DNA of 64,000 nt, from contig JAVCDH010000003.1 of the NCBI GenBank assembly GCA_030765805.1, forward strand, positions 5,021-69,020, in the 5' to 3' direction. This document shows, one piece after another, positions 432-26,176 of the stretch (positions are counted from its first letter, which is position 1; the number at the start of each line of letters is the position of its first letter). Source of the stretch: Candidatus Euphemobacter frigidus (GTDB lineage Bacteria > Auribacterota > Erginobacteria > Erginobacterales > Erginobacteraceae). The position numbers were made by a program, and so were the translations under genes. The notes below the pieces were generated by a model. That model was not told the DNA's origin. It was given only the letters and a program-made list of their open reading frames with translations, and did not search any database.

Positions 432-433
432 GT

Positions 434-6834: not shown

Positions 6835-6869
6835 CTCTCGCCTTGCGGGTTGCCAATTCACTCTTCCGG

Positions 6870-7800: not shown

Positions 7801-7818
7801 AGTCCATTAACAGCCGGT

Positions 7819-8841: not shown

Positions 8842-8854
8842 CTGCCACCCTTTC

Positions 8855-11032: not shown

Positions 11033-11042
11033 GCTCTGTTTC

Positions 11043-11288
11043 TCAGCCCCCCCCCTTCAATATGGGTATCGGCCCCCTGGTTTTAACCGGGTTGATTGCT
11101 CTCTGAGCCTTGGGCGTGACCCGGTATTGGCCATCGCTTCCTACCACAAGATAATCGTCTTTAAGAAGCCCCGCGCAGACCCTTGCCGCGTATTCAGCGG
11201 AGACCCCGATCCTTCGAGCTATTGACTCACTATCTGCCTCGCGCAGGTTTGTAACAACCTTTACGATCTGGAGCTCTATTCCTTTCAT
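11043..11288 (-). CDS. Small winged-helix protein, paralog of 1146..1382
   Basis: [43 protein letters not shown]...DGQYRVTPK. Confidence 0.7.
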
Positions 11289-11299
11289 CTTTAGCCTCT

Positions 11300-12022
11300 T
11301 TAATTTCCCGACAACCTTATGAAATCTTTCAATTCCCGCAGAGCCTCGAACCTCTGCCCCCGTGTCTTGTATAAGCGACTCAGGTTATAATGGGCCTCCG
11401 CGAAGCGGGAATTAAGCGCGATAGCTGTTTTGTATTCGTCGACCGCCTTCTCCGTCATACCCTTTTCCTGATAAGAGAGTGCCAGATTGAAATGGGAGTT
11501 GGCGTCGATAAAATCAAGCTCGATCGCCTTCTTTAATTCACGGATAGAATCATCCATTCTCCCCGACATCCCGTAAGTCGTACCCAGGTTGTAATAAGGT
11601 TCGGCCAGGTCCGGTTCAATCTCAACCGCTGTCCGGAACTCCGCCTTCGCCCTCTCGCGATCACCCATCCGATCGCAGGCTATCCCCAGATTATTATGGG
11701 CCCGCGCGTTGCCCGGATTTATCTGAAGGGCCTTCTCGAAGGCGATGATGGCGATTTGACAGTCCCCGAAGATCAGGCAGATTACCCCGAGATTGTTCCA
11801 GGCCGGGTCCAGAAGGGGGTCAATCTCCAGGGCCTTCTTATACTCCTTTATCGCCTTCCGGTACTCCTCCCTCTCTTTATATATTACCCCCAGGTTATTA
11901 TGGGCTTCGGGCAGCCCGGGGTTCAGTTCCAGCGCCTTCAAGTACTCGGATATAACACCCTGTGGGTGGCCGTCCCCGGCGAGGCTATTGGCGCGCTCAA
12001 AATGAACCAGGGCTTCTTTCAT
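11300..12022 (-). CDS. Tetratricopeptide-repeat protein
   Basis: About six 34-aa repeats A(H/W/Y)NNLG...A...Y.KA(L/I)E(L/I).P. Confidence 0.92.
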   Translation of the reverse strand: MKEALVHFERANSLAGDGHPQGVISEYLKALELNPGLPEAHNNLGVIYKEREEYRKAIKEYKKALEIDPLLDPAWNNLGVICLIFGDCQIAIIAFEKALQINPGNARAHNNLGIACDRMGDRERAKAEFRTAVEIEPDLAEPYYNLGTTYGMSGRMDDSIRELKKAIELDFIDANSHFNLALSYQEKGMTEKAVDEYKTAIALNSRFAEAHYNLSRLYKTRGQRFEALRELKDFIRLSGN

Positions 12023-12027
12023 GGTAT

Positions 12028-12957
12028 TTAGTTATAACAGATCTCATCAATCAATCTGGTTATCTTTCCCCTGAAATCCGATCTCCGGGATACGTCCAGC
12101 GAGTCCATCTCCGAATCCAGGATATCCAGACAGATCTTCGTGAAGCCCTCATCGGAAGAGGTTGGGCTTAGGTCGGCCATGTTCATCACCTTGCCGATCA
12201 TAATGGCGGCGCGGACTGTGGGTATGGCTCCGTTATTGTCGTGGTTTCTCAGCCCCCGGACAAGGTCCACGACCATCCCGGCTTCCGGAGGCGATATCCC
12301 GGTCTTGGCGGCGGTTATGGCTATCTCGGTATCCCGGTCGTAATGGCCCAGCTTTATGGTGATCAGCCGGTCCCAGAGGGCATCCTGCGCCCGGTGCACA
12401 CCGGCGTACTCATGGGGATTGCTGGTAAAGATAGCCCGGAAATCGGGATGCACCTTTAAATATCCCTCCGTTCCCCGGGCCGCGGGAAGGTCGAGCATCT
12501 TTTCTTCCAGGACGGAGAGGAGGACATTATTGGCCTCGGCCCGGGAGCGGGTAAATTCATCATAGATAAGAGTGAAGCCGTGCTTGCAGGCCACGGTGAG
12601 TCGATTGTCCACCCACTTGCCGCTCACGTCTTCTTCGGCCTTGAGGACCGAGTGGATGAAATTGTCCACCAGCTTTCTCTTCCGATAACCAAACTCCGAT
12701 CCGACCAGGTCGGAAGTGCCGAACTGTTCGTCCCCGTGAATCAGGATGGTCGGCTGACCCGCCTGGGCCGCCAGGTACATGGCCAGCGTGGTCTTGCCGG
12801 TCCCGGCGGGGCCGGAGAGGTTGATCGGATAACCCACATCCAGGTACAAAAAAGCCCGCTTTAATATATCTTCTATCTGGGGCGTCATTACAAAAGCGGG
12901 CTGCTCCCTGGCCAGCATGATGGGCTGAACCTCGGCGATGGTATCGATCTCATTCAT
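12028..12957 (-). CDS. gvpN: Gas vesicle AAA+ ATPase GvpN (copy 2)
   Basis: GPAGTGKTTLAM, DNFIHSVLK, WVDNRLTVACKHGFTLIYDEFTRSR, FTSNP.EYAGVH. Confidence 0.95.
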   Translation of the reverse strand: MNEIDTIAEVQPIMLAREQPAFVMTPQIEDILKRAFLYLDVGYPINLSGPAGTGKTTLAMYLAAQAGQPTILIHGDEQFGTSDLVGSEFGYRKRKLVDNFIHSVLKAEEDVSGKWVDNRLTVACKHGFTLIYDEFTRSRAEANNVLLSVLEEKMLDLPAARGTEGYLKVHPDFRAIFTSNPHEYAGVHRAQDALWDRLITIKLGHYDRDTEIAITAAKTGISPPEAGMVVDLVRGLRNHDNNGAIPTVRAAIMIGKVMNMADLSPTSSDEGFTKICLDILDSEMDSLDVSRRSDFRGKITRLIDEICYN

Positions 12958-14071
12958 TTTTCTTCTCCTCAGGGTTGTATTCTAATTTCCCCTCTCTCCA
13001 GTTGAACTTTATCTCCTCGGTTACAACCGGGGGTTCCCCCCCGCGGTTTAAGTTTCGTTTCTTCATCTCCTCCCAGCTCTCGATAACGGCCAGCCAACCG
13101 GTCCCGGTGCGCTCCAGGTTGATCAGACGGCCTATATCCGAGAGTTGACTCTCCAGGAACTGCTCGGCTTTTTCCTCGTCGCCGGCGTTAAAAGGCACGC
13201 TGTTCAGGGATTCCCGGAGGGGCCGCGTCAAGAGCCGCTCTTTAAGATTCTCCAGCATCGTTTCATCTGTTATCTGATCACAGGAAGATACAGCCAGTTC
13301 ATCGTCAATTGCCACCCGGCAGATAACCGGGATATCATCCCCTGAAATTCTCCTTCGTTTCTTCTCTTCCCAGGGTTCCATCCATATAAGACACCCGTTC
13401 TCCCGCCACTCGATATCGAATACCTGCCCCGCGTTTTCCAGCGACTCTTTCAGGAGACCGGCCAATTTTTCCGTGTCTGGCGTACTTTTAGCCACTTCCC
13501 TTAATCTCGCGCCGAAATCGTCCAGGGCCTCTCCCAGTCTCTGCCTCAGCCTCTCCCTCCGCTGTCTCAGTTCTTCCTTCCTTATCTTCTCCGCCTCCCT
13601 CTTCTTCTCCCACGAGGTCGCTTCCCGTTCTAAATCACCGGCCCGGTCCCGGTTGCCCGGAGGCGGCTTCCCCAGGGCCCGGGCCCACTCCCGGGCGATC
13701 AGTTTCTTCCTGATCGAGACTACCGTGGCCGTGTTGAGCGGTATCTCCTTCTTCTTTTTTTTGTCTTTGTTGTCTTCCTCCTTCCAGGGATTATATTGAA
13801 CCCAGGCCGCTTCATCGGGTTCGCCGGCCAGCTTTCGCTTGTCGTGTTCAATTATCGTTTTCGCCACGGCATCCCGAAAAGGAAGCCCCCCGGAAGAATC
13901 CTTTTTCAGCAGCTCCTTTCGTTGCAGCCTCCCGTCCCTTTCCATCTGCTTTTTCCAGGCCAGGGCCGCCTCTTCGAGAGGGGAGATGACCGCGACCTTC
14001 TTCCGTAGAATCCGGGCCTTTTCCCGGGACATTTCCTTTATCGCTTGAACTCTCGCGTTTATCACTTTCAT
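12950..14071 (-). CDS. Coiled-coil protein with two C-terminal GvpO-like domains
   Basis: K/E/R-rich N-terminus; two similar segments GQVFDIEWRENGCLIWMEPWEE and GRLINLERTGTGWLAVIESWEE resembling the GvpO beta-hairpin. Overlaps gvpN start. Confidence 0.55.
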   Translation of the reverse strand: MKVINARVQAIKEMSREKARILRKKVAVISPLEEAALAWKKQMERDGRLQRKELLKKDSSGGLPFRDAVAKTIIEHDKRKLAGEPDEAAWVQYNPWKEEDNKDKKKKKEIPLNTATVVSIRKKLIAREWARALGKPPPGNRDRAGDLEREATSWEKKREAEKIRKEELRQRRERLRQRLGEALDDFGARLREVAKSTPDTEKLAGLLKESLENAGQVFDIEWRENGCLIWMEPWEEKKRRRISGDDIPVICRVAIDDELAVSSCDQITDETMLENLKERLLTRPLRESLNSVPFNAGDEEKAEQFLESQLSDIGRLINLERTGTGWLAVIESWEEMKKRNLNRGGEPPVVTEEIKFNWREGKLEYNPEEKKNE

Positions 14072-14859
14072 AATTTTCTGTCAGGTGGATTCCCGGCATG
14101 AGAAGCAAGGATGTAGTAGCGGCCTTCTCTCAAGAGAAGGCCCTTTCTGACCAGGGAGTCGCAGAGCTGCTCGGCGTAAGTTGAGGAGATCGGGGGCGAT
14201 GCGTGCCTGCTCACGGCCACCCGGTCCGCCCGGCCCAGTTCCTTGACCACTTCCAGGACGTCCCGCTCGCTTCCCGAGGCCGTGCCGACCGGCCTTTCCC
14301 GCTCGACTTTAGCGGACAGGAAACTCTCCCCGCCTCCGCTCCACGGATTTCTGTCCGATGCTTTTAAATCATGGGATCTGGTCTCTTCTCTTACCGTGAC
14401 AACACCTTTCCCCCGGCAGGTCCCGCAGACAAGCTTGTTGGTCGGCTCCTTGCCCGTTCCCCGGCATTTGGGGCATATCTCCACCGGCGCCTCCACGTGG
14501 TGAACTCCTTTGCCTTTACAGGCATTACAGGTCACATTGCTCCGGGGTTTTTCTTCACCCCTCCCCCGGCAGAAGGCGCAGGTGACGACGGGCGGGTCCA
14601 CGATGAGGGTGCCCGTGCCCCGACAGACCGGGCACTTTGTGCCCCGGGGCCTTTCCCCCTGTCCCCGGCAGAATCCGCAGGGGTACTCCTCGTCCTCAAA
14701 GAGGGCGCCGGCCTGATGGCCACCGTAGGATTTCCCGGGACCTAGGGTGACCGGCTGCCAGGCCCATTCATCCTGCAGTTTTTTAATCCCGGTTTTCCCG
14801 GTCTTCAGCTTTGTTTTAAAACTTGCCTTGTCCCATTCCCAGCTCATCTTTACCCCCAT
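14068..14859 (-). CDS. DnaJ-type zinc-finger (6 CxxCxGxG) plus C-terminal winged helix
   Basis: CGFCRGQG, CPVCRGTG, CAFCRGRG, CNACKGKG, CPKCRGTG, CGTCRGKG; then ERDVLEVVKELGRADRVAVS...ISSTYAEQLCDSLVRKGLL. Confidence 0.8.
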   Translation of the reverse strand: MGVKMSWEWDKASFKTKLKTGKTGIKKLQDEWAWQPVTLGPGKSYGGHQAGALFEDEEYPCGFCRGQGERPRGTKCPVCRGTGTLIVDPPVVTCAFCRGRGEEKPRSNVTCNACKGKGVHHVEAPVEICPKCRGTGKEPTNKLVCGTCRGKGVVTVREETRSHDLKASDRNPWSGGGESFLSAKVERERPVGTASGSERDVLEVVKELGRADRVAVSRHASPPISSTYAEQLCDSLVRKGLLLREGRYYILASHAGNPPDRKL

Positions 14860-14897
14860 TTACATGGTGCAAAATAGTGAACAAATCCCTGATTACT

Positions 14898-15290
14898 TCA
14901 GTAGCTCCAATCCATCTTCTTAAAATGCCCTGGGACCTTCCGCTTGGTTTTTACGTCTGTCTTGTTTTCAGATTCTTCTAAACCACCCTTGGGGACCTTG
15001 GGTAATTTATCTTCCTTTTCCAGCAGGTCTTTTTTTACATCTCGCCATGAATCTGAAATGTTCTTTTGTCGTTTTCCTAAAATTTCGCCATATTTTTCCG
15101 TCCGTTCTTTCTCCTTAGTTCTTATATACATATCCAGATAATCCTGTCCTTCGGTCTTTGGCTTTGAATGGACTCTGGACTGTATATTTGTCTTCGGGGG
15201 GATGCTGTCGCCTCTGCTCGGCTTTCTTTTTCTCCCCTCCTCATCTTCCCAAGGGAAAAATTTATCTGCATCTTTTTTATAGTCCGGCAC
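14898..15290 (-). CDS. GvpV-like gas vesicle accessory protein
   Basis: KTEGQDYLDMYIRTKEKER...coiled coil...FKKMDWSY resembles the YL..Y.L..EK.RL motif and terminal Tyr of GvpV-type proteins; lies downstream of gvpN. Confidence 0.5.
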   Translation of the reverse strand: MPDYKKDADKFFPWEDEEGRKRKPSRGDSIPPKTNIQSRVHSKPKTEGQDYLDMYIRTKEKERTEKYGEILGKRQKNISDSWRDVKKDLLEKEDKLPKVPKGGLEESENKTDVKTKRKVPGHFKKMDWSY

Positions 15291-15384
15291 GGTTCATCAC
15301 CCCCTTAATTGATTTACTCCCGGTCTCTGAAACCGGTAAAATGCCCTCTTTCTTCCGTCCTCTGCCCTCTATCCTTACCGTCCT

Positions 15385-15555
15385 CTACTTGGCCGCCTTG
15401 CGGGCGTGGATTGTTATATGCTGGGCCAGTTGAGTCCCCTGTATCTTGATCTCGACCATTTGACCGGGCTCCAACTTGGCCTCTCTCCGGATGTTGCCGG
15501 GAATAGGAATTCGGCCTTCTTCATCGACCCGCGCGTAAGCTCTCATCAATGTCAT
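15385..15555 (-). CDS. AbrB/MazE/SpoVT-family DNA-binding protein (56 aa)
   Basis: Below ORF-track cutoff. AAAAGGAGG RBS; MTLMRAYARVDEEGRIPIPGNIRREAKLEPGQMVEIKIQGTQLAQHITIHARKAAK; VD..GRI.IP..IR....L.PG..VEI motif. Confidence 0.8.
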   Translation of the reverse strand: MTLMRAYARVDEEGRIPIPGNIRREAKLEPGQMVEIKIQGTQLAQHITIHARKAAK

Positions 15556-15848
15556 CTTCTTCCTCCTTTTATAAAATTAGCGGCTTCGCCGCTACTTTTA
15601 TGTTTTGAACAACGACCATCATGATTCTATTGAGGCAATATCGGAAATTATTTTCACAATTGCAATGGGCATTTTATATCGAAATAATCTTATTTTTCCT
15701 GCGTAAAAATAATATTATTGAAATTTGAGCTTATCTTCTCAACTGCCTGGCGAGGTCTTCCTACCCCAGGTTCCGGGTTGGGATGGCCTTCCCGCGGGTA
15801 TCTTTCTGAATTTCCGGATAACAATCCGGCCGGACACCGGTGGTCTCT

Positions 15849-16766
15849 TCAGCAGTATTGATCGAGCAGCTTGTTGATGATCTCTCTGACCTTCTGCTGG
15901 TGGGAGCGGGAACCGACCCGGCTGGTCTCGGAAGTCAATATCTCCAGGGCCGTCTCCCGGAAGACCGGATTGTCCCTGGAGACGACCGCTCCCCGCACTT
16001 TCAGGGTCTTGCCGATCATGATCGGTCCCCGGATGGTGGGGGCGTACTCGCACTTGCCCGACTCCCGCAGGCCCCGCACCACGTTAATCAACTTTTCCGC
16101 GTCCGGAGGAGAAAGATCGGTTTTCGCTACCGTGATGGCCACCTCGGTTTCCCCGTCATAGTGATCAAGGTCGATGGTGATCATCCGGTCTCGCAGGGCA
16201 TCCTGGCTCCGATAGACACCGGCGTACTCTTCGGGATTGGAGGTGAAGATGGCCGTGAAATTGGGATCGACCTTGAGGTAGCTCTCATTGCCTTCCCGGG
16301 CGGCGGGAAGATCGAGCATCTTTTCCTGAAGGACGGAGAGCAGAGTGTTGTTGGCCTCGGGGCGGGAACGGGTGAACTCGTCGTAGATCAGGGTGAACCC
16401 GTACTTGCAGGCCACGGTCAGGCGGTTGTCCACCCAGCGCCTCTGCATGTCTTCTTCGGTTTTCAGGACCGAGTGGATGAAATTGTCGATGACCTTCTTT
16501 ACGCGGTACCCGTATTCTCCCCCCACCAGGTCGGAGGAGGAGAACTCCTCGTCCCCGTGGATCAGCATCACCGGCCGGCCGATCTTCGAGGCGATATGCA
16601 TGGCCAGCGTGGTCTTCCCGGTGCCGGAAACTCCCCTGAAGTGGACGGGAAACCCGGCGGCGATATAGGCCAGCGATCTCTCGGTGACTCCTATGACCTG
16701 GGGGGTTTCAACGAAATTAGGCAGGGCCCGCGGCTCTAATACAGTGGTTAACTCTTCTACCGGCAT
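15849..16766 (-). CDS. gvpN: Gas vesicle AAA+ ATPase GvpN (copy 1)
   Basis: GFPVHFRGVSGTGKTTLAM, WVDNRLTVACKYGFTLIYDEFTRSRPEANN, FTSNPEEYAGVY; AAGGAGGTG RBS. Confidence 0.95.
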   Translation of the reverse strand: MPVEELTTVLEPRALPNFVETPQVIGVTERSLAYIAAGFPVHFRGVSGTGKTTLAMHIASKIGRPVMLIHGDEEFSSSDLVGGEYGYRVKKVIDNFIHSVLKTEEDMQRRWVDNRLTVACKYGFTLIYDEFTRSRPEANNTLLSVLQEKMLDLPAAREGNESYLKVDPNFTAIFTSNPEEYAGVYRSQDALRDRMITIDLDHYDGETEVAITVAKTDLSPPDAEKLINVVRGLRESGKCEYAPTIRGPIMIGKTLKVRGAVVSRDNPVFRETALEILTSETSRVGSRSHQQKVREIINKLLDQYC

Positions 16767-16994: not shown

Positions 16995-17348
16995 CTATAC
17001 GACTCCTTTGCCCCCGCAATTCAGACAGGGAAGACTGTCGGGGGCCTGCCCGGTGCCTTTGCATACGGGACAGACTTTGGTTTTCTCCGGTACAGTGTTC
17101 ACACCCTTACCCCCGCACACGGTGCAGGTGAGCCTCCGATCGGGGTAAATGCCGGTCCCATTACAGAAGGCGCATTCCGCGGTGGGGAGGATGACACTCA
17201 CTTTCCCGGTTCCCCCACAGACCTGGCAGACGGACAACGGAGAGAGGAGACCAAAGGGGTCAATCCCTTCCCCGTCGCAGAAGGCGCATTTTATGGTCTT
17301 GCTGGAAACCTTTATTTCTTTGCCTGCTTTTACTTTTTTCTTGGCCAT
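16995..17348 (-). CDS. DnaJ-type cysteine-rich zinc-finger protein (6 CxxCxGxG)
   Basis: CAFCDGEG.DPF.LLS.LS.CQVCGGTG, shared with 2125..2517; four more motifs follow. Confidence 0.85.
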   Translation of the reverse strand: MAKKKVKAGKEIKVSSKTIKCAFCDGEGIDPFGLLSPLSVCQVCGGTGKVSVILPTAECAFCNGTGIYPDRRLTCTVCGGKGVNTVPEKTKVCPVCKGTGQAPDSLPCLNCGGKGVV

Positions 17349-17462: not shown

Positions 17463-18722
17463 TTAACCCTTTTTAGCTGGAGTGCGCTCCGGCGGGCGTT
17501 CGATCTTTACCGGCTTGGGCGCCTCTGCCTTGGGCGCTTCGATCTTGGGCGCCTCGATCTTGGGCGCTTCGATCTTGGGCGCTTCGATCTTGGGCGGAGC
17601 GGCCTTCGGGGCCTCGGGTTTCGGGGCCGGCTCTTTTCCGGCTTTTCCCGGGGCTTCTTCTTTTGGTTCAGGAGGGGGTTTTGGTCCCCGGACGCCGGAC
17701 ATTGTTGACAACAGGGATTTCCAGGCGCCGGCGGCTGCTACTCTCTCTTCCCCGAAACCGGAAATTAAAACAGCTATATCAGCAGCACGAGTTTTATCTC
17801 CCTGCTTGCTTTCACCAATAAACTTGGCCATATCAGCAGCTCTGGCTTTATCCTCTTCTTTTAATACTACCAGGAGCCTGAAGACCTCATCGGCCATGAT
17901 CTGAATTTCAGATGAAAACCTCTTGATAAGTTCTTTGGTTTCAATCTTTAACTTCTCGTTGTCTCCATGAAGTATGGCTACTAGTTTATCGGTATCCCCC
18001 TTTAATTGTTGGTTTGCCGAAGCAATGGCCATGATCAATTTGTCGGCAGCAGCCTTTAGATTTGAAACCTCTTCGGCTCTTGCTTTATCCTGATCTTTAC
18101 ATTCTGATAGATACTTGACCATATCAGCAGCACGAGTTTTATCTCCCTGCTTGCATTCATCAATGAACTTGGCCATATCAGCAGCTCTGGCTTTATCCTC
18201 TTCTTTTAAGACCCCCAGGAGCCTGGAGACTTCATCGGCCATGGTTTGGATCTCGGCGCCAAACCTCTTGATAAGTTCTTTGGTTTCAATCTTTAACTTC
18301 TCGTTGTCGCCATGAAGATCACCTATCAATTTGCCGGTATCCCTCTTCAGTTGCTTATTCGCCGAAGAGATAGCAGTCATTAACTTATCGGTGTCCGCCT
18401 TCAATCGCGTATTCGCCGAGCTAATAGCTTTGACCAATTTGTCTGAAGCTTGCTTTAAATCACGAACTATTTTAGCTCTTTTATTATCCTGGATGTTACA
18501 TTCAGCTAAATACTTGGATATATCAGCGGCTCTGGCTTGATCTTCTTTCTGGCACTCGTTTAAAAGTGCGTCAACATCCATCACCCGGGCCCGATCCTCT
18601 TTTTTGCATTCCCCGATAAACACCTCCGTGTCTTTTTTAATCTCTTTGATCCGTTTCACCCTATCCTGATAGGCATCGGCTATATCTTCAGCCAGGCTTG
18701 TATAATCTTGTGCGGTTGACAT
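17463..18722 (-). CDS. Helical repeat protein in GvpC position (GvpC analogue) with Pro/Lys/Glu/Ala tail
   Basis: 18-aa repeats, a 115-aa (345-nt) internal duplication and (PKIEA)4. ATG 18722 follows AAGGAGGTG; lies between gvpA and gvpN. Confidence 0.65.
   Translation of the reverse strand: MSTAQDYTSLAEDIADAYQDRVKRIKEIKKDTEVFIGECKKEDRARVMDVDALLNECQKEDQARAADISKYLAECNIQDNKRAKIVRDLKQASDKLVKAISSANTRLKADTDKLMTAISSANKQLKRDTGKLIGDLHGDNEKLKIETKELIKRFGAEIQTMADEVSRLLGVLKEEDKARAADMAKFIDECKQGDKTRAADMVKYLSECKDQDKARAEEVSNLKAAADKLIMAIASANQQLKGDTDKLVAILHGDNEKLKIETKELIKRFSSEIQIMADEVFRLLVVLKEEDKARAADMAKFIGESKQGDKTRAADIAVLISGFGEERVAAAGAWKSLLSTMSGVRGPKPPPEPKEEAPGKAGKEPAPKPEAPKAAPPKIEAPKIEAPKIEAPKIEAPKAEAPKPVKIERPPERTPAKKG
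17521..17595. repeat. 15-bp coding tandem repeat (PKIEA)
   Basis: GC(T/C)TCGATCTTGGGC x4 plus one degenerate copy. Confidence 0.85.
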
Positions 18723-18805
18723 CTCTTTCACCTCCTTGCTGTTCTTTACTATCGTTACTATTTAATTACCTTTTCGCGTGACTCTTATCTTTAGTTTGGA
18801 AAAAA

Positions 18806-19450
18806 CTATGAATTAACAGTGGCCATGACCCTTTGCCACTGACTGCTTATTTCATCCTTGACCTGTTCAAACTCTTCCAGCACCCTTTCCACTTCAATGT
18901 TGTCGTCTTTGCGCTCGATAGTAAACGCCTTTACCATCGCCTTGATGTCCTTGACCCTGATTGCGGGACCTTTTTCCAGCAACATCCGCAGGGCGATATT
19001 CAATTCTTCACGATCACGGTGGAAGTCCCGGAGCATCCGGCTGATTCTTCTCTCCCTCTCTTTCGGCCGTCTCAGCACCTTCTCCTTTAAAACATTGAAA
19101 TCATCCACTACCGAAGGACTGCTCACGGTGAGAATCTCTTTCAATTTAGCCACCGTCTCCTCTTCATTCCGGCAGAAATCCTCCACCATCCGGTTAACCT
19201 CGTTTTCACGCTCCTCCTGATGGCTTCGAATTCCCTCCATCAGAGCGTCGAAATCACTTCTCCGCAGGGATTGATACCGGGAAAACCTCTCCCTCAGGTT
19301 ATCAATCATCCGCTCCTGTTCCGCGTGATATTCCCCGAGCTTCCGGTTAACCTCCCTCATCAGGGCAATTACTACCTTTACCTTTGATTCGTACGATCCG
19401 ACTATCTCTCCGACCATTTTTGAGATTAACTCATGACTTCGCGTAACCAT
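18806..19450 (-). CDS. Helical protein directly downstream of gvpA, probable paralog of the GvpC analogue
   Basis: ATG 19450 after GAGGT; amphipathic helical pattern; termini align with 17463..18722. Confidence 0.65.
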   Translation of the reverse strand: MVTRSHELISKMVGEIVGSYESKVKVVIALMREVNRKLGEYHAEQERMIDNLRERFSRYQSLRRSDFDALMEGIRSHQEERENEVNRMVEDFCRNEEETVAKLKEILTVSSPSVVDDFNVLKEKVLRRPKERERRISRMLRDFHRDREELNIALRMLLEKGPAIRVKDIKAMVKAFTIERKDDNIEVERVLEEFEQVKDEISSQWQRVMATVNS

Positions 19451-19645: not shown

Positions 19646-19849
19646 TTAGGCAGCCGGTAAGAGACCCACTGCTTCGGCATACTTCAGGAAAGTCTCGACC
19701 GACGCAACCACGACCCGGGCTTCAATCGCCAGAAGTTCGATTCCGACGAGCGAAACCCTGACCCAGGCGTCAACCACGACGCCCTTGTCCAGGATCCGGT
19801 CGACAACTTCGACCAGGCTGGATGAGGCTATTGCTTTTTCTACGGCCAT
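19646..19849 (-). CDS. gvpA: Major gas vesicle shell protein GvpA
   Basis: MAVEK...[55 protein letters not shown]; AAAGGAGG RBS. Confidence 0.98.
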
Positions 19850-20042: not shown

Positions 20043-20399
20043 TTATTTCAAAGCTTTCTTTGCAACTTTCATTAACTTTGTCATATCAACCGGCTTTTCC
20101 ATAAAGTCATAAACTTCCAGTTCGCCGGCCCTCTCCCGAGTGGATTTATCCCCGTATGCGGATATCATTATCGTTCTTGTTGAAGGACTTATAGCCTGGA
20201 CTTTTTCGAGAACAGTTAAACCGCTTATTTTATATAGCCTGATGTCGAGGATTATTAAATCATATCGGTTATGACTGATTTTTCTTAAAGCATCTCTTCC
20301 GCTGTGGGCACTGTCAACGTCATATCCGTCATCTTTCAGGAAACAGGAGATAAGCCAGCAAGTGTCGTTATCATCATCAACCACTAACACTCTGGACAT
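20043..20399 (-). CDS. Single-domain response regulator (receiver)
   Basis: VLVVDDD, LIILDIRL, MISAYG, FMEKP. Confidence 0.92.
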   Translation of the reverse strand: MSRVLVVDDDNDTCWLISCFLKDDGYDVDSAHSGRDALRKISHNRYDLIILDIRLYKISGLTVLEKVQAISPSTRTIMISAYGDKSTRERAGELEVYDFMEKPVDMTKLMKVAKKALK

Positions 20400-20470
20400 G
20401 CTTATTACCCTTCCTCACCTTGCAGACTAACTCCCGCACCTTTGAACAAATAAAACTTACTGACATTTAT

Positions 20471-20487
20471 AGCAATAACCGTGCCAA
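20471..20487 (-). promoter_or_regulatory. Sigma54 (-24/-12) promoter for the receiver-gvpA operon
   Basis: Minus strand TTGGCAC-GGTTA-TTGCT matches TGGCAC-N5-TTGCW; an NtrC-type activator gene lies immediately upstream. Confidence 0.9.
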
Positions 20488-20872
20488 TGTTGCATGATGT
20501 GTTGAAATAATCTCCGAAACCTTTTTAACTCACCTAAAAAATCCCCGAAGGCCCTGGTGTCTTAGGGGTCACCGCGGAAGCCCGGAAAACGGCAGCATAA
20601 ATATTTTGAGATACATCCGGTTTTTATAACCATTGCATTCTCAAAATATTAACGCATCTCGCCCATCCGCCAAACAAGCGCAGGCTTTTCGCAACAGTCG
20701 CATAATCCGGGATGATCTGGTGATTCGCGGATTACTTTTAATCGGGGAGGGCAGGGGAAGAATATTTTTTAACCTGATCGGACCGGGGGGACTAATAAAA
20801 AGAAAGGCCGGGAAAAAATGGGACACTTCCGGGACGCGGCGGACGGAACTGACACAGTTTTAAAATTTTACT

Positions 20873-20921
20873 GTGGGAGCGGCTTCCAGCCGCGATTATC
20901 GGGGCAAGATGCCCCTCCCAC
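20873..20921. repeat. GTGG-type REP doublet, possibly also terminating the activator gene
   Basis: GTGGGA-GCGGCTTCCAGCCGC...GGGGCAAGATGCCCC-TCCCAC. Confidence 0.55.
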
Positions 20922-20978
20922 AATCCACCGATACGGGTCCACTGAACGCTTACGAATCGCTCAATTTAGGTTCAAATT

Positions 20979-22373
20979 CTAACCAGACAGGCCCAGGCTC
21001 TTTAACTTGCGATAGAGGGTCTTTCGACTCATGCCGAGAATTTTTGCCGCCTTCACTTTTTTCCCACCGCTTTGCTCAAGGGCTTTATTGATCAAATCTC
21101 TCTCAACTTCCCTGGTTATATCTTCAAAGGAAGCGCCTTCTTCCAGGGCTTTTGTCAGATGAACTCTATCCTGAGAAAGACCGAAGGATCTTTGAATTCC
21201 ATCTCGCTCTTTGATGTCTTTCGGTAAATCAGCCGGGGTAACATGAGCGGACCCGGCCAGCAGTACCGCTCTTCTGACCGCGTTTTTCAACTCCCGAACG
21301 TTGCCGGGCCAGCGGTAGTTGAGCAGACTTCTCATCGCCTGGGCGGCGAACCCTTTGATTTTTTTGTCGAACTCATCATTTGCTTCCTTCAGAAAATGCC
21401 TGGCCAGGAAGGGGATATCATCTTTTCTCTCCCGGAGAGGAGGGAGATCGATGTGAAATTCATTCAGCCTGTGAAAAAGGTCGGGCCTGAACCTTCCCTG
21501 CCGAACGGCTTCCGATAAAGGGGTGTTCGTAGTCACAATAATCCGTACATCTATCTTTATATGTTTCTTGGCCCCCAGGCGGTAAAGTTTCCTCTCCTGG
21601 ATAACTCTCAAAAGTTTCATCTGCATGTTCTCGGAGAGATTCGTGATTTCATCTAAAAATAAAGTGCCCCCGTCAGCCTGCTCAAATTTACCCGTCTTCT
21701 TCGCGTCCGCGCCGGTAAAAGCCCCTTTTTCATATCCGAAAAGTACACTTTCGGCCAATGTCCCCGGGATGGTGCCACAGTCTACCGGGATAAAAGACTT
21801 GTCCTTCCGGGTACTATTCTGACGAACCAGATGGGCGATCAGTTCCTTGCCCGCGCCGCTTTCGCCCTGGATGATCACGGTCATATTAGTGGGAGCTATT
21901 ACTTTGACCTGGTTCAAAACCTGCTTTATTTGAAGGCTGTCTCCCATAACATCTTCTAAAGCAATCTCCTCCCCCAGTCTCTTTCTCAGGATTTCTACTT
22001 CCCTGCTCAGATATTGAGTCTGGAGAGCCCTCTTGACCAGAAGAACCAGCTCCTCGTTGTCAAACGGTTTGGTGATGTAATCAAACGCCCCTAACTTCAT
22101 TGCTTTTACCGCCCCTCTGACTTCGCCGAAGGCGGTAAGCATTATTACGATCACATTCTTGTCAATTTTTTTTATATTTTTTAATACCTCCATCCCATCC
22201 TCACCCGGGAGCTTGATGTCCAATAAAATCAGGTTGGGTGTGTCTTTTTTAACCGCTTTCAGCGCTTGTTTCCCATCAGAGACGGCTATGGTATGGTATC
22301 CTTCCTCCTTCAGAATATTGGAAAGGTTCCAGCGCAAATCCGCGTTATCGTCAACGATAAGTATTGATTCCAC
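20979..22373 (-). CDS. Sigma54-dependent response regulator (NtrC/AtoC family, REC-AAA+-Fis HTH)
   Basis: Receiver, GESGAGKE, GAFTGA, LFLDEI, WPGNVRELKN, AAKILGMSRKTLYRK. Confidence 0.96.
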   Translation of the reverse strand: MESILIVDDNADLRWNLSNILKEEGYHTIAVSDGKQALKAVKKDTPNLILLDIKLPGEDGMEVLKNIKKIDKNVIVIMLTAFGEVRGAVKAMKLGAFDYITKPFDNEELVLLVKRALQTQYLSREVEILRKRLGEEIALEDVMGDSLQIKQVLNQVKVIAPTNMTVIIQGESGAGKELIAHLVRQNSTRKDKSFIPVDCGTIPGTLAESVLFGYEKGAFTGADAKKTGKFEQADGGTLFLDEITNLSENMQMKLLRVIQERKLYRLGAKKHIKIDVRIIVTTNTPLSEAVRQGRFRPDLFHRLNEFHIDLPPLRERKDDIPFLARHFLKEANDEFDKKIKGFAAQAMRSLLNYRWPGNVRELKNAVRRAVLLAGSAHVTPADLPKDIKERDGIQRSFGLSQDRVHLTKALEEGASFEDITREVERDLINKALEQSGGKKVKAAKILGMSRKTLYRKLKSLGLSG

Positions 22374-22394
22374 CCCATTAACCTCCTGAATGCA

Positions 22395-23024
22395 TCAATT
22401 AAATTTACCTGCTATTTTTCTAACCTCTTCCTCAAAAAACTTCTTCACCTCTTCCCAGGCCAGTTCCTTTAACATATGTGGCATTTCATCAGGCTCAGCG
22501 TCGTTAAAAAATACTAAACTCTTTTGAATATGAATAAGATTAGAAGCTAATTTTCCATATTTCTTATCATAAAACTTCAATAATTCATTTAATCCATAAC
22601 CAGATTTTAATATGAAGTACAAATCGATAAAATCCCTCTTTGCCCCTCGAGTTGCTACAGCATCTATCTTCATCGCAGCAATGTCTCGAATATCAGCTAT
22701 ATTCAATAAAAAATGTTTTAACGGAGGGAGAACCAAAGGATATTTGTAAATAAAAAGGCTAAATTTTATCCCCTCAAATTCGCCTATAACTGTTCCTTTA
22801 TCTGCCTGTTCTTCATCAAATGAACCCAATTTTGACAGCTCAGTAGAAAAAACTTTGGGCACGAACTCTTTAGTTGTAAAAAAGTCAAAATCAACAGAAA
22901 TGCGGTGTCCTAACTGGAGGGCAGCCGCAGTGCCACCCGCCAAATAGGCATCCTTCAAAATACCCGAACGGCCTAATAAGGCCAAATTTTCTTTTGCTCC
23001 TTTGATGAGCGTTTCTTCAAACAT
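22395..23024 (-). CDS. AbiEii/AbiGii-family nucleotidyltransferase (type IV TA toxin-like)
   Basis: YLAGGTAAALQLGHRISVDFDFF, IAAMKIDAVATRGAKRDFIDLY. Start trimmed to ATG 23024. Confidence 0.85.
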   Translation of the reverse strand: MFEETLIKGAKENLALLGRSGILKDAYLAGGTAAALQLGHRISVDFDFFTTKEFVPKVFSTELSKLGSFDEEQADKGTVIGEFEGIKFSLFIYKYPLVLPPLKHFLLNIADIRDIAAMKIDAVATRGAKRDFIDLYFILKSGYGLNELLKFYDKKYGKLASNLIHIQKSLVFFNDAEPDEMPHMLKELAWEEVKKFFEEEVRKIAGKFN

Positions 23025-23275
23025 AATACCTCTTCTCTGGGCACATCTAACAAAAGAGTCCAAAAATTAGCGCTTTTTTGAGAATAGCCACGAAAATTAG
23101 ATAAAACATTTTTTATTTCTGATCTCTTAAAATTCTTCCCCATCCAAGCAACGGCTTTCTCATCACCATATTCCAAAATCCTTCTCAGAACAAACACCCT
23201 GCGTTTTTGAAATTCTATCTTTTCAAATTCTACATCCCAAAAATACTTCTCCAAGAATTTAGGCAAACTTTTCAT
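22973..23275 (-). CDS. DUF6922-like small partner (putative antitoxin)
   Basis: YFWDV......RVFVLRRILEYGD..AVAW motif; overlaps the nucleotidyltransferase gene. Confidence 0.7.
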   Translation of the reverse strand: MKSLPKFLEKYFWDVEFEKIEFQKRRVFVLRRILEYGDEKAVAWMGKNFKRSEIKNVLSNFRGYSQKSANFWTLLLDVPREEVLCLKKRSSKEQKKIWPY

Positions 23276-23310
23276 AAATCATATGGTCTTCGAAGACGAA
23301 CCAAAAATTC

Positions 23311-24861
23311 CTATTCTTGTTCGATTTTGCTAAGGATAGGAAGCCGGACTGTTACCTCTGTTCCCTGACCAAGGGTACTCTTTATTTTAATACTCCCTTT
23401 ATGGAAGCTTATAATCTGGTGAGCCAGAGAAAGCCCCAAACCTATACCGTCTTTTTTCCTGGTGAAGAAAGGATCAAATATTTTATCCATATCTTTATCC
23501 GGGATTCCTACCCCGGTATCTAAAAACCGGACTACAATTTCTTTCTCTTCCGAATAAGCGTTGATAAATAATCTCCCCCCCGTTTTCATAGAGTCCAGGG
23601 AATTTATTATAAAATTCAAGAACACCTGCTCCAACCGCTTTTCATCTATCATAATCTCCGGCATTCTCCGGGACGCCCTCTTGCTCAAGCGCACGTTCTG
23701 TTCAATACATCTGGCTTTGGCAAGGCTACAAACACGTGTTAGTATATTGCCTATCCGGCCCGGATTAAAAATCATTTCACTAGGCTTGGCAAAATTTAAT
23801 AGATCTTGAATAATTTTATTCGCGCTCCTCGAATTTCTCAATATAAGCCTCATATGTTTTTTAAATTGTTCACTCCGCATCTGCTTGCTGAGGCATAATT
23901 GAGCCGAGGCGTAAATATTGCCGAGAGGGTTTCTTATCTCATGGGCGATGCCCGCTGCTAATTCTCCGACGCCCGCCATCCTCTCGGAATGAAACAATTG
24001 TTCTTCTGTTCGTTTTCGTATAGAAATATCCTTTGCGATGTGAACAGCACCAATAGCTCTACCTTTTTCAACTATAGGTGATATAGTTTCCTCCAGATAA
24101 ATCCCCAGATGAGGTTCAAAAAATTCCCTTATAACTGGAATCTTGCTTTTCATTGCCTGATTAAACGGGCAATCATTGGGGGGAGCTTTTCCCCCATGGA
24201 AAACTTCATAACACTTCATGCCAATCAATTCTTTCGGCGCCATCTTGAAAATATCTGAACAAGTTCTGTTTATCTGAGTAAGCTCGTAATTTTTATCTAT
24301 GATCACAGCCATATCCGAGATGGAGTTAAAAGTCGTTTCCCATTCTTCGGCTAACTTCCTTGACTCTTCCTCCGCCTTCTTACGTTCGGCAACCTCGGTT
24401 TGCAGTTTTTCGTTTGCTTTCTTAAGTTCGGCCGTTCGTTTCTCTACCTCTCTTTCCAGATCGACATACGCTTTTTGCAATGCGGCCTCGGCTTCGCGTT
24501 TCTCAATCGCCCTTTGGACAGTCAACAATAATTGATCTAAATTGTAGGGTTTTTCAAGATAGTCAAAGGCGCCCAGGTGGATAGCCTCGATAGCCGATTT
24601 CTGAGAGGCGTAGCCGGTGAACACGATGCACTCCGTCCCGGGACTGAGTTTTTTTATTTCCTTCATTACTTCCAGGCCGAACATATCCCCAAGCCTGAGA
24701 TCTATCAGGGCAACCAAGGGTGCTTCCTTCTTTAACTTGATCAGGGCTTCTTTTCCCGTGGAAGCGGTTATAGACATGTATCCCCTCTTCTCCAGGTACT
24801 CTGCCAGGCTTTCCCTCACGCCGGGGTCATCGTCTATGACGAGAATTTTGTTCTTCTTCAT
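23311..24861 (-). CDS. Hybrid sensor histidine kinase (REC-coiled coil-PAS-HisKA-HATPase)
   Basis: ILVIDDD, CYEVFHG...CP PAS motif, AHEIRNPL, DTGVGI, FDPFFT, GIGLGL. Confidence 0.93.
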   Translation of the reverse strand: MKKNKILVIDDDPGVRESLAEYLEKRGYMSITASTGKEALIKLKKEAPLVALIDLRLGDMFGLEVMKEIKKLSPGTECIVFTGYASQKSAIEAIHLGAFDYLEKPYNLDQLLLTVQRAIEKREAEAALQKAYVDLEREVEKRTAELKKANEKLQTEVAERKKAEEESRKLAEEWETTFNSISDMAVIIDKNYELTQINRTCSDIFKMAPKELIGMKCYEVFHGGKAPPNDCPFNQAMKSKIPVIREFFEPHLGIYLEETISPIVEKGRAIGAVHIAKDISIRKRTEEQLFHSERMAGVGELAAGIAHEIRNPLGNIYASAQLCLSKQMRSEQFKKHMRLILRNSRSANKIIQDLLNFAKPSEMIFNPGRIGNILTRVCSLAKARCIEQNVRLSKRASRRMPEIMIDEKRLEQVFLNFIINSLDSMKTGGRLFINAYSEEKEIVVRFLDTGVGIPDKDMDKIFDPFFTRKKDGIGLGLSLAHQIISFHKGSIKIKSTLGQGTEVTVRLPILSKIEQE

Positions 24862-25004
24862 AAATTAGCTCCCGCAGTCTACCCCGCAAAATGCGGGGGT
24901 CGCAAATTTATGTTTTGAAAAAAGACTATTGTGATTAAATCAAGGCAAAAACTAAAAAAGGTCTTATAGCCTCAGCCAACATATAATTTCTATCCGAGAA
25001 CTTA

Positions 25005-25061
25005 GTGGACCTAAAGGTCCACAACTACGAAGATGTCGTAGTCGTCGACCTTTAGGTCGAC
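25005..25061. repeat. GTAG-type REP doublet
   Basis: GTGGACCTAAAGGTCCAC-AACTAC-GAAGATGTC-GTAGTC-GTCGACCTTTAGGTCGAC. Confidence 0.75.
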
Positions 25062-25183
25062 AGAATTATTGTCCCGATACTTTTTATTTGAAAAGATATG
25101 AAATCGGGATCCCGATGGATATCGGGAAAATTCTTAAGCAATAAATTAGCTCCCGGAGTCTGTCCCAGGGCAGCGCCGCGCCT

Positions 25184-25807: not shown

Positions 25808-25810
25808 CTG

Positions 25811-26176
25811 TTACTTTCTTGACAGGGCATCTTTGACAATTGATGATATAAGTTTTATGTCGAACGGCTTGGTGATGTATTCTAAAGCGCCCAGTTGCAT
25901 GGCTTTTCTGGCTGTATCCAACGAACCGTAAGCGGTTATCATGACCACCGCTATCTCTTTTTCTAATTTCCTCATCCGTTCCAATGTGTCTATCCCGTCC
26001 ATTTCGGCCATCTTGATATCCAGGAGAACCAGATCCGGCTTGTTCTCCTTGATTTTTCGCAAAGCCGATCGACCGCTGAGGACGTAAGACGCGTCATAAC
26101 CCTCGTCCTCCAGGATCTCCGCAAGGATTTCGCAGGTATCTTTCTCATCGTCCACGATCAGAATTTTCTTTTTCAT
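25811..26176 (-). CDS. Single-domain response regulator (receiver)
   Basis: ILIVDDE, LVLLDIKM, MITAYG, YITKPF. Confidence 0.93.
   Translation of the reverse strand: MKKKILIVDDEKDTCEILAEILEDEGYDASYVLSGRSALRKIKENKPDLVLLDIKMAEMDGIDTLERMRKLEKEIAVVMITAYGSLDTARKAMQLGALEYITKPFDIKLISSIVKDALSRK

Follow-up and report, generated by a model that had tools for sequence, protein, structure and literature searches.

A 419-residue helical-repeat protein encoded between gvpA and gvpN in Candidatus Euphemobacter frigidus, most likely a GvpC variant built on an 18-residue unit

The window analysed here, that is, the whole stretch of 64,000 nucleotides from Candidatus Euphemobacter frigidus, contains a gas-vesicle gene cluster that encodes a 419-residue protein of helical repeats. 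Because its gene sits in the gvpC slot and encodes one long helix of 18-residue units, it is most likely a previously undescribed variant of GvpC, and we are inclined to regard its product as a GvpC-type brace on the outer shell of gas vesicles. An earlier, sequence-only reading had called the protein a GvpC analogue with an 18-residue instead of a 33-residue repeat. The gvpC slot and the helical architecture agree with this description, but the protein is probably more than a mere analogue, since the family to which it belongs cross-scores with GvpC. In the cited parts of PMC9994262 and PMC10903477, the structural understanding of GvpC rests on a 33-residue repeat that spans four GvpA subunits, and our literature search turned up no account of a GvpC with an 18-residue repeat.

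The gene, its product and its neighbours

The gene was placed at 17463-18722 on the minus strand, stop codon included, from its reading frame and translation, its ATG with a Shine-Dalgarno site, and its family membership. The true start is the ATG at 18722, and not the GTG of a longer reading (17463-18731, minus strand). A Shine-Dalgarno AAGGAGG, read from the sequence at 18731-18737 (minus strand), lies 8 nt upstream of this ATG, the alternative GTG falls within that site, and homologues of the protein begin at the same point (MANADD...).

The anatomy of the product, with all positions on the minus strand, is as follows. First, a conserved N-cap (residues 4-40, MSTAQDYTSLAEDIADAYQDRVKRIKEIKKDTEVFIG; 18612-18722) aligns across family members. 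Second, a repeat array (residues 41-325; 17757-18611), delimited by a table of units, the periodicity, the hydrophobic period and the predicted helix, contains thirteen 18-residue units, a single 26-mer (residues 77-102) and a single 25-mer (residues 211-235). Third, the helix ends in a C-cap (residues 326-345, FGEERVAAAGAWKSLLSTMS; 17697-17756) whose Trp is invariant in family alignments. Fourth, a tail rich in Pro, Lys, Glu and Ala, recognised by its composition and by 15-nt repeats (17466-17696), ends in PAKKG; over the last 74 residues it has 28% Pro and a net charge of +5, and within it a 15-nt unit repeated 5.5 times (17514-17596) gives rise to four successive PKIEA. The protein has five Cys (residues 42, 60, 78, 193 and 211), which lie on its hydrophobic face. 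The sequence-only reading had listed consecutive 18-mers, each of which we found as quoted, together with occasional 25-mers, and the periodic Cys and (PKIEA)4 tail that we could locate.

Superimposed on these units is a 345-nt (115-residue) duplication on the minus strand, with its first copy at 18121-18401 and its second at 17776-18056. Repeat finding recovers it as a direct repeat of 281 nt at a spacing of 345 nt, with 83% identity between the copies, and both points between which such a duplication had been noticed beforehand, namely, 17941 and 18286, lie inside it. Independent DNA support came from Logan contigs, which in four runs out of four match the gene region with no differing letter. 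Inside the repeats these contigs fragment into pieces of 48-235 nt, none of which spans the array, so that the order and number of the units are those of the MAG assembly only; an 89-nt piece common to both 345-nt copies has a depth of about 1.0-2.1 times that of the flanking contigs. No RNA run was among those listed for the region.

The neighbouring genes, also on the minus strand, form a string headed by gvpA, which encodes the major shell protein (19646-19849; PF00741, E=2.8e-16; NF006874, 126.6 bits). It is followed by a distant paralogue of the 419-residue gene (18806-19450; 214 residues from its ATG; family HMM, E=5.6e-14), the 419-residue gene itself, a gene for a stand-alone zinc-finger protein of the DnaJ CXXCXGXG type (16995-17348; PF00684, E=1.8e-11) and a gvpN-type AAA+ ATPase gene (15849-16766; AAA_5, E=1.9e-17), which closes the gvpA-to-gvpN interval and whose product matches GvpN of related clusters with E down to 1e-183. 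The paralogue has repeats of about 51 residues, its strongest period being 51, and its HMM cross-scores exceed those of controls. In the window, and likewise in 7 of 10 other loci, the zinc-finger gene comes directly after the family gene and ahead of gvpN. The rest of the cluster includes three gvpF/L genes, gvpG, gvpO, gvpK, a J-like gene and a second gvpN, along with CDC48-type and ArsA-type ATPases and Hsp20. No terminator-like site was found on the minus strand between gvpA and the 419-residue gene, and the two are probably co-transcribed. Either or both of the paralogues may coat the shell.

Periodicity and predicted structure

Self-similarity of the protein was scored with BLOSUM offset by offset, and compared with 200 shuffles. 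The offset of 18 residues gave z=14.1 with 27% identity (z=15.8 with a second script), and the offset of 115 that corresponds to the duplication gave z=19.2 with 47% identity; further signals were found at offsets 36 (z=8.5), 97 (z=9.1) and 133 (z=14.2). The hydrophobic period is exactly 3.60 over 285 residues (z=15), with a power of 166 at this value, whereas periods of 3.50 and 3.67 have powers of 11 and 17-20, respectively. The straight amphipathic face that had been proposed from the letters is therefore upheld, with nothing at the two neighbouring periods. Along the same 285 residues the direction of the hydrophobic moment stays mostly between 50 and 130 degrees and never leaves the range of 26-189. 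The 18-mer has a single hydrophobic face, made of Leu, Ile, Phe or Cys at unit positions 1, 8, 12, 15 and 16, and Arg is conserved in those units that read EDKARAAD.

The protein is predicted to form one nearly unbroken long helix: AlphaFold2, using a 17-row alignment, modelled helices at residues 3-192 and 195-341, with a mean pLDDT of 77.3 and a pTM of 0.31. Searches of the PDB by sequence and by profile returned nothing meaningful, the best match being a designed three-helix bundle (E=0.0019). The Protein Atlas led to a SOGA-like coiled coil at the top (0.91) and to a cluster with PF01304 in 10% of its members (0.85), and the structural neighbours of the protein in this resource are generic long helices. 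Prediction of a complex between four GvpA copies and two repeats (36 residues) gave no answer, with a score of 0.02. A match to Pfam Mating_N (25.3 bits against a cut-off of 21.4) was rejected as a compositional artefact, as no stretch of the protein passes by itself.

An unnamed family and its relation to GvpC

The protein belongs to an unnamed family characterised by an N-cap (xADxxxxLAxDxAxAYxDRVxxI), helical repeats that vary, a C-cap (AAAWKxLL) and a gene located between gvpA and gvpN. All four features, including the invariant Trp of the C-cap, are present in the 419-residue protein, and the C-cap motif also occurs in Methylocella and in same-phylum homologues. Among 1.84 billion entries, 17 representatives matched the protein at E<=1e-3 (best E=3e-23), and they have the N-cap, the repeats and the C-cap in common. 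A word-limited homologue search in which 7999 candidates were scored gave none at E<=1e-3, a search started from the relative P0002 returned seven unnamed metagenomic proteins only, and a single-protein search of 60 relatives gave no match; family members of the same phylum become visible only with a profile, not with a single protein.

When such a profile was used on eight gas-vesicle clusters picked by the presence of gvpA alone, a family member was found between gvpA and gvpN in seven, the locus L004 being without one. At the level of whole genomes, a profile of the family matched 7 of the 78 further genomes that represent the phylum. The 10 gvpA-positive relatives include six of these seven, the seventh (G062) lies outside the set scored for gvpA, and no match was obtained in the 50 gvpA-negative relatives. 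Among the genomes scored for gvpA, the family is restricted to those that bear it.

Members in the gvpA-gvpN interval were found as well in a Ca. Edwardsbacteria MAG and in a Thermodesulfovibrionales MAG, the record of the latter having an assembly gap within the repeats. The Edwardsbacteria homologue (tblastn E=2e-30; family-HMM E=7e-80) carries four successive 'EDKARAAETAKFLGECKE' units, three of them complete and identical, and with these tandem units the number of repeats varies within the family, as it does in GvpC. A 'hypothetical protein' encoded between gvpA and gvpN on a Methylocella tundrae plasmid scored 28 bits, where no shuffle exceeded 5.2, and the interval proteins of the Octadecabacter and Spartinivicinus plasmids gave no family match. 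Across the family the repeat periods are 18, 25, 33 or 40. As 18 is the strongest period in 8 of the 19 helical-family members scanned, with 25, 33 or 40 in the others, the 18-mer is not unique to the 419-residue gene.

The C-termini of most relatives consist of a strongly basic, AT-hook-like tail or of a winged-helix domain. The basic tails, such as KPKKKRGRPRKRG or KKRRKRKR in some relatives, bring the net charge of the final 20 residues to between +7 and +11, and the winged helices of others have weak matches to MarR, IclR and HTH_24; that of the relative P0008 showed no BLAST similarity to the stand-alone 81-residue winged-helix gene of the cluster. The 419-residue protein has neither, its last 20 residues carrying a net charge of +3 only, and no basic remnant was found past its stop codon. 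Such C-termini hint at a second job that GvpC is not known to have, which is a point against the GvpC-type reading.

A weak or absent match to Pfam Gas_vesicle_C had been anticipated from the letters, and none was obtained. Namely, PF01304 matched neither the protein at E<=0.01 or 0.1, nor five relatives at E<=10, nor the six-frame translation of its own genome (94.7% complete) at E<=1, and the NCBIfam GvpC models (E<=1) and haloarchaeal GvpC models did not match the protein either. Profiles of the family gave a different picture. First, an HMM of the 18-mer group scored a maximum of 29 and a median of 16 bits on cyanobacterial GvpCs, versus 4 and 2 on reversed and 8 and 0 on shuffled sequences. 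Second, an HMM of the relatives with 33-mers scored 39 and 24 bits, versus 6 and -1 and 10 and 0 in the same controls, and in alignment these relatives keep the register of Nostoc GvpC through all four of its repeats. Third, the reciprocal GvpC HMM gave 22 and 14 bits and 29 and 15 bits, with controls at or below 8. Since these profile scores of 16-39 bits compare with 10 bits or less in the reversed and shuffled controls, a distant homology of the family to canonical GvpC is plausible, and the likeness can also be convergent between amphipathic helices. A comparison with hhalign (probability 11%, P=0.0026), in which the family N-cap is paired, at low probability only, with the N-terminal end of cyanobacterial GvpC, does not carry enough weight by itself and was considered only together with the HMM controls.

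This relationship could not be reduced to a correspondence between units. When the 18-mer is compared with the 33-mer of cyanobacteria, a score as high as the observed one is obtained in 383 of 2000 column permutations, so that the mapping is not fixed; with the 33-mers of the relatives this is the case in 46 of 2000. An equivalence of the 18-mer to residues 1-18 of the cyanobacterial 33-mer, considered by eye, did not hold up: the best register is a different one, and its score is the one that the 383 permutations reach. The GvpC repeat is all-alpha and amphipathic, with one conserved face that bears Leu, Phe and Arg (Huber 2023); in this unit-level comparison the residues of the 18-mer cannot be aligned one-to-one with GvpC Leu4/12/30, Phe11/33 and Arg19.

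Cyanobacterial GvpC resembles the 419-residue protein in that its gene immediately follows gvpA and precedes gvpN (on the Nostoc plasmid p4), in its all-helical tandem repeats, whose number varies between relatives, in the cross-scores of its N-terminal segment and repeats with family profiles above controls, and in the Pro-rich tails with which some of its representatives end (P0028-P0032). However, all 12 cyanobacterial GvpCs scanned peak at a period of 33 residues and have a hydrophobic period of 3.65-3.66, against 18 residues and 3.60. Moreover, the helix of the 419-residue protein is about twice as long, it has the AAAWKxLL C-cap and Cys on its putative binding face, and its gene is accompanied by a second paralogue and a zinc-finger gene.

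Other known systems share the position of the gene. In Serratia sp. ATCC 39006, compared by gene position alone, gvpC likewise lies between gvpA1 and gvpN, with a further small ORF between it and gvpN in the part of the preprint cited here (10.1101/2021.04.26.441537). The sections of Tashiro 2016 (PMC4982088) drawn on here report this type of GvpC as conserved in seven proteobacteria; in the gvpC mutant the vesicles collapse at 0.14 instead of 0.43 MPa, an experimentally shown strengthening that serves as a precedent for a brace. The one indirect link between the family and the proteobacterial type is the Methylocella plasmid protein described above. Haloarchaeal GvpC (Halobacterium pNRC100) occupies the same gvpA-gvpN slot and, as far as the cited portions of PMC9501494 and PMC10903477 describe it, also has helical repeats, a linker and a separate C-terminal module, which is a globular zinc-finger domain (PMC9501494). 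Unlike the 419-residue protein, which is without a zinc finger, it has acidic repeats of 32-40 residues with a hydrophobic period of 3.51. The family HMM scored -6.7 bits on Halobacterium GvpC, a value that 270 of 500 shuffles equal.

Proposed placement on the shell and competing explanations

Eighteen residues make exactly five alpha-helical turns, and therefore the binding face would keep its direction from unit to unit, unlike that of the cyanobacterial 33-mer. As a GvpC-type brace, the protein would fold as a single amphipathic alpha-helix of about 340 residues and about 50 nm, with the N- and C-caps marking the ends of the brace, and would follow the ribs of GvpA, its single uninterrupted hydrophobic face turned towards the shell. 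The side facing the shell would be that of unit positions 1, 8, 12, 15 and 16, which carries the repeated Cys and an aromatic-aliphatic pair, the conserved Arg and Lys of the EDKARAAD units would form pairs with Glu52 and Glu59, two invariant residues in helix alpha-2 of GvpA, a contact already suggested for GvpC, and the Pro/Lys/Glu tail would extend outwards from the surface. One 18-mer would reach across about two GvpA subunits, and the entire helix across about 40. The ratio of one repeat to two GvpA, which the sequence-only reading had put forward, fits only roughly: by our own arithmetic, 18 residues at 1.5 Å measure 27 Å, that is, 6-12% above two GvpA subunits (24.2-25.4 Å) at the spacing of 12.1-12.7 Å given in the cited part of PMC9994262. 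What the analysis shows is the anatomy, the periodicity, the predicted helix, the place in the cluster and a family confined to gvpA-bearing genomes among those scored; that the protein binds the shell and stiffens it, and in which stoichiometry, is what we infer.

The same amphipathic helix could instead belong to an assembly chaperone or scaffold that transiently shields GvpA, or the growing edge of the shell, and is not present in the mature vesicle. This explanation, which we judge improbable, is modelled on phasins and exchangeable apolipoproteins, whose amphipathic helices coat an organelle or a hydrophobic surface and shield it, and it finds some support in chaperone-like genes of the flanks (DnaJ-type zinc fingers, two GvpN, the CDC48-type ATPase and Hsp20) and in sub-threshold Pfam matches of family members to surface-active helical families, namely, Apolipoprotein, ApoLp-III, PhaP_Bmeg and HsbA. 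However, these matches are below curated cut-offs and may reflect composition alone; the phasin models PhaP_Bmeg (PF09602) and TIGR01837 do not match the 419-residue protein, and phasin models gave 25.1 bits for a relative (cut-off 28.3) and 12.4 bits for the neighbouring paralogue (cut-off 94.7). Phasins and apolipoproteins are also built from 11/22-mers or irregular helices rather than from 18-mers, a perfectly phased face of 285 residues with a changing number of repeats is to be expected of a protein that is matched to a periodic lattice rather than of a general holdase, and the gene stands after gvpA, which is the classical site of structural GvpC.

Slightly more doubtful is an adaptor or tether, in which the repeats would grip the shell and a module at the C-terminus would anchor vesicles to the nucleoid or keep them apart from each other. 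Its logic is that of PhaF and PhaM, phasins whose basic tail binds DNA on PHA granules, with the Pro/Lys/Glu spacer as the module of the 419-residue protein. The interchangeable C-termini of the family, be they basic tails or winged helices, speak for it, as does the zinc-finger domain at the C-terminus of haloarchaeal GvpC (in the part of PMC9501494 cited above), but the 419-residue protein, ending in PAKKG, lacks both the winged helix and the basic tail that its own relatives have. Furthermore, such a role would be compatible with that of a brace, and not opposed to it. The least probable is a coiled-coil, filament-like or regulatory passenger of the cluster with no contact to GvpA, for which one may invoke the helix break at model residues 193-194, which could permit a hairpin (in a model with a pTM of 0.31 only), the resemblance of the 'ISSANTRLKADTDKL' units to repeats of the type SSANTQLKSYTDG in the giant tail-fibre-like proteins P0005 and P0016, and the generic long helices in the Atlas, but which is at odds with a hydrophobic period other than the 3.50 of left-handed coiled coils and with family matches that adjoin gvpA, in genomes that are all positive wherever gvpA was scored.

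The GvpC-type brace could be extended into a modular adaptor, a broader proposal that we put forward only as a speculation of low probability, in which an exactly phased helix clamps the GvpA lattice, an exchangeable C-terminal module is attached to it, and two paralogues make up a two-component coat. A clamp without the drift of 60 degrees per repeat of the 33-mer would have a distinct binding geometry, the AT-hook-like tail or winged helix in relatives, and the Pro/Lys/Glu spacer in the 419-residue protein, would tether vesicles to the nucleoid or space them, and the adjacent paralogues, with repeats of 18 and about 51 residues, would together form the coat.

A conserved module of three genes, two repeat paralogues and a zinc finger, is present in the gvpA-gvpN slot of many uncultured anaerobes, and we found no mention of this module in the cited portions of the papers. 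A natural relative with units of 18 and 25 residues and a straight putative binding face would mean that the brace is not bound to the 33-residue register. GvpC is the main handle for engineering gas vesicles as ultrasound reporters, and the 18-mer would offer a shorter and more modular unit with which to tune their stiffness.

Sequence and architecture of the repeat protein

The repeat gene is a minus-strand open reading frame (17463–18722) and comes third in a long string of genes on that strand, headed by gvpA (19646–19849), from which it is separated by a gene for a 214-aa helical protein (18806–19450, minus strand). The listing of open reading frames places its start at GTG 18731. This codon falls within the Shine-Dalgarno sequence AAGGAGG (18737–18731), ATG 18722 comes 8 nt after it, and the first methionine of the homologues occupies the position equivalent to that ATG. 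With ATG 18722 taken as the start, the product has 419 aa (17463–18722, including the stop codon); residue numbers are nevertheless those of P0001, the same protein counted from the GTG. Four parts can be distinguished, namely, a conserved N-terminal segment (residues 4–40); a repeat array (41–325) of thirteen 18-aa units, one 26-mer and one 25-mer; a conserved C-cap, FGEERVAAAGAWKSLLSTMS (326–345); and a Pro/Lys/Glu/Ala tail (346–422) with four PKIEA units, encoded by 5.5 copies of a 15-nt unit. The stop codon directly follows PAKKG, the last 20 residues carry a net charge of +3, and no basic remnant lies beyond the stop.

The repeats noticed in the sequence-only reading, that is, 18-mers with occasional longer units, a 115-aa duplication visible at a 345-nt offset and a (PKIEA)4 tail, are real. 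Self-similarity at offset 18 gave z=14.1 against 200 shuffles, and z=15.8 with an independent script; at offset 115 it reached z=19.2, with 47% identity (200 shuffles). In the DNA, a 281-nt direct repeat recurs at a spacing of 345 nt with 83% identity. Contigs from public runs labelled as salt-lake metagenomes matched the region with zero differences in four runs out of four, but they break up within the repeat array, which no contig bridges, so that the number of units rests on the assembly of the metagenome-assembled genome (MAG).

The straight amphipathic face proposed from the sequence was likewise borne out. Hydrophobicity peaks at a period of 3.60 with a power of 166, against a null maximum of 39 ± 12, and only 11 at 3.50 and 17–20 at 3.67. 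At this period the stripe stays aligned with the long axis of a standard helix over some 80 turns, and it differs from the pattern of a left-handed coiled coil. AlphaFold2, run with a 17-row alignment, predicted helices at residues 3–192 and 195–341 with one break between them, at which the chain may turn into a hairpin (mean pLDDT 77.3, pTM 0.31).

A repeat-protein family in the gvpA–gvpN interval

Of 1.84 billion representatives searched exhaustively with HMMER, 17 matched the protein at E≤1e-3, the closest with E=3e-23. They have in common an N-cap (MANADDxxxLAxDMAxAYxDRVxRIKxIK), a variable number of EDKARAAE-type repeats and a C-cap (AAAWKxLLxTM), followed by a linker and then either a strongly basic tail or a winged-helix domain. 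A scan of a genome collection found the gene, with gene order kept, in a Candidatus Edwardsbacteria MAG, whose homologue has four successive EDKARAAETAKFLGECKE units, three of them complete and identical, and in a Thermodesulfovibrionales MAG, where a run of N interrupts the 18-aa array (L011, 8253–8348). Assemblies tend to break in the repeat genes of this family; P0004 and P0012, for their part, are short pieces of genes that are nearly identical.

Searching 60 relatives with the single protein gave no match. With the family profile, a member was found between gvpA and gvpN in seven of eight clusters chosen on gvpA presence alone, locus L004 being the exception. In a whole-genome profile search of 79 genomes from the phylum, seven matched besides the host's own; six of these seven belong to the ten gvpA-positive relatives, and none of 50 gvpA-negative relatives matched. 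A ‘hypothetical protein’ in the same interval of a Methylocella tundrae plasmid scored 28 bits, where shuffled sequences reached at most 5.2, and has the Trp of the C-cap. The target belongs to this conserved and unnamed GvpC-like family. Its 214-aa neighbour, by the family profile a distant paralogue (E=5.6e-14), is built of repeats of roughly 51 aa in which an LRKKDFD motif recurs, and its hydrophobic period is 3.63; such a gene accompanies the target-type gene in 8 of 10 other loci examined.

Repeat length varies within the family. A period of 18 aa is found in the target, P0019, P0006 and five of seven winged-helix forms; 25 aa in P0003, P0022 and the L009 protein; and 43 or 61–62 aa, which are composites of 18 and 25, in P0013, P0021, P0002, P0020 and the winged-helix forms P0011 and P0017. 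Two L005 proteins and the Methylocella protein repeat every 33 aa, the L002, L003 and L006 proteins every 40, and six of eight proteins of the neighbour's group every 51 or 58; the periodicity scan detected no clear repeat in three short L5-type proteins and two of the neighbour's group. The C-termini vary as well: the last 20 residues carry a net charge of +3 to +11 in 17 of the 18 other non-winged-helix members (+7 or more in 12 of these 17), several strongly basic ones are AT-hook-like (RGRP), and other members, the target not included, have a winged helix instead. Such exchangeable ends point to a possible further role in tethering or spacing, which would parallel PhaF and PhaM.

GvpA is 97–99% identical between this MAG and the Edwardsbacteria (L010) and Thermodesulfovibrionales (L011) MAGs, and their GvpN proteins match at E of about 1e-183. 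None of 13 relatives of the same family or order as the host has gvpA. The whole gas-vesicle cluster looks to have spread horizontally. Two giant tail-fibre-like metagenomic proteins, P0005 (2611 aa) and P0016 (1116 aa), contain many SSANTQLKSYTDGAIS repeats that resemble the ISSANTRLKADTDKL units of the target (11 stretches matched, the best at 51% identity); convergence and shared origin could both account for this likeness.

Relation to GvpC and predicted seating on the shell

Canonical GvpC models matched neither the target nor the relatives searched. The target does not qualify as a Pfam Gas_vesicle_C (PF01304) protein: a weak match or none had been expected, none was found, and this model has no match at E≤1 anywhere in the host genome. 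We compared group HMMs with an annotated GvpC from a Nostoc plasmid, 14 further cyanobacterial GvpCs and Halobacterium GvpC, using reversed and shuffled sequences as controls (maximum/median bits throughout). First, the HMM of the 18-mer group scored cyanobacterial GvpC at 29/16 (reversed 4/2, shuffled 8/0), and that of the 33-mer relatives at 39/24 (reversed 6/−1, shuffled 10/0). Second, the cyanobacterial HMM scored the 18-mer group at 22/14 and the 33-mer relatives at 29/15 (reversed 4/1, shuffled 8/0 in both cases). Third, five other proteins of the window gave −4 to +5 bits, and Halobacterium GvpC showed no profile signal with the family.

The 33-mer relatives are in register with all four Nostoc GvpC repeats (xxFLxxxxKxRxxxAKxQAxxLxxFxxxL), and hhalign paired the N-terminal segments of family and GvpC weakly (11% probability, P=0.0026). 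At the level of single units, the 18-mer could not be placed on the cyanobacterial 33-mer (score reached by 383 of 2000 permutations); against the relatives' 33-mers, 46 of 2000 permutations reached the score. The family is probably, though not demonstrably, a distant homologue of GvpC.

The hydrophobic period tracks repeat length across the proteins scanned. It is 3.58–3.60 in three further members (P0019, P0002, L009), 3.63 in the 40-mer L002, and 3.65–3.66 both in L005a, a relative with 33-mers, and in cyanobacterial GvpC, whose strongest repeat is 33 aa in all 12 proteins scanned, as against 18 aa and 3.60 in the target; Halobacterium GvpC differs in the other direction, at 3.51. The passages on GvpC found in the literature (PMC9501494, PMC10903477, PMC9994262, PMC4982088) describe repeats of 33 and 32–40 aa and none of 18; homologues from deltaproteobacteria may already be placed together in supplementary material, for instance in the GvpC tree of Tashiro Fig. 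S1. The proposal of a GvpC analogue appears largely right as to a putative GvpC-like working, but the protein is a conserved family member and not a one-off analogue.

GvpC is described as running along the ribs on helix α2 of GvpA, one 33-mer (49.5 Å) covering four subunits of 12.1–12.7 Å, with its conserved Leu, Phe and Arg all on one face and, were the helix ideal, a face rotation of 60° per repeat (Huber et al., PMC9994262). The target's face comprises unit positions 1, 8, 12, 15 and 16, the Arg and Lys of each EDKARAAD unit lie beside it, and Glu52 and Glu59 of GvpA are invariant. In a GvpC-like seating, the helix would lie along the ribs with these Arg and Lys facing Glu52 and Glu59, and the 18-mer would require no face rotation from unit to unit. 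The suggested register of two GvpA per unit is not established, because an 18-mer (18 × 1.5 = 27 Å) is 6–12% too long for two subunits (24.2–25.4 Å); a 25-mer measures 37.5 Å (25 × 1.5), against 36.3–38.1 Å for three. By the same arithmetic, the predicted helix of about 337 residues spans about 505 Å, or 40–42 GvpA subunits. In Serratia, mutation of gvpC cut the collapse pressure by two thirds (PMC4982088), which shows that non-cyanobacterial proteins in the gvpA–gvpN interval do stiffen vesicles; Serratia GvpC is likened to the target by this position.

Accessory and regulatory genes of the cluster

Directly downstream of the repeat gene lie a gene for a DnaJ-type zinc-finger protein (16995–17348) and then gvpN (15849–16766), all on the minus strand, as are the genes that follow: more zinc-finger and unknown genes, a second gvpN, a TPR protein and a CDC48-type double AAA ATPase (8855–11032), and, farther along, three gvpF/L, gvpG, gvpO, a two-domain ArsA/Get3-type ATPase (3137–5095), a GvpJ-like gene, Hsp20 and gvpK. 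This accessory set (120–16766) is unusually rich, with two gvpN paralogues, the TPR protein, small winged-helix proteins, Hsp20 and a GvpF/L protein with a fused J domain (7819–8841). Three stand-alone zinc-finger proteins of the DnaJ type (CXXCXGXG) are present (16995–17348, 14068–14859 and 2125–2517), the first type being found immediately after the repeat gene in 7 of 10 other loci; the exceptions are L004, L007 and L008. Upstream of gvpA, a minus-strand regulatory block (20043–29083) includes response regulators, one of them single-domain, a sigma-54 activator (20979–22373), and histidine kinases, namely, a hybrid response-regulator/histidine kinase (23311–24861) and a sensor kinase that contains 13 consecutive Glu (26687–29083). 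A similar sigma-54 activator and kinase occur at the Thermodesulfovibrionales locus.
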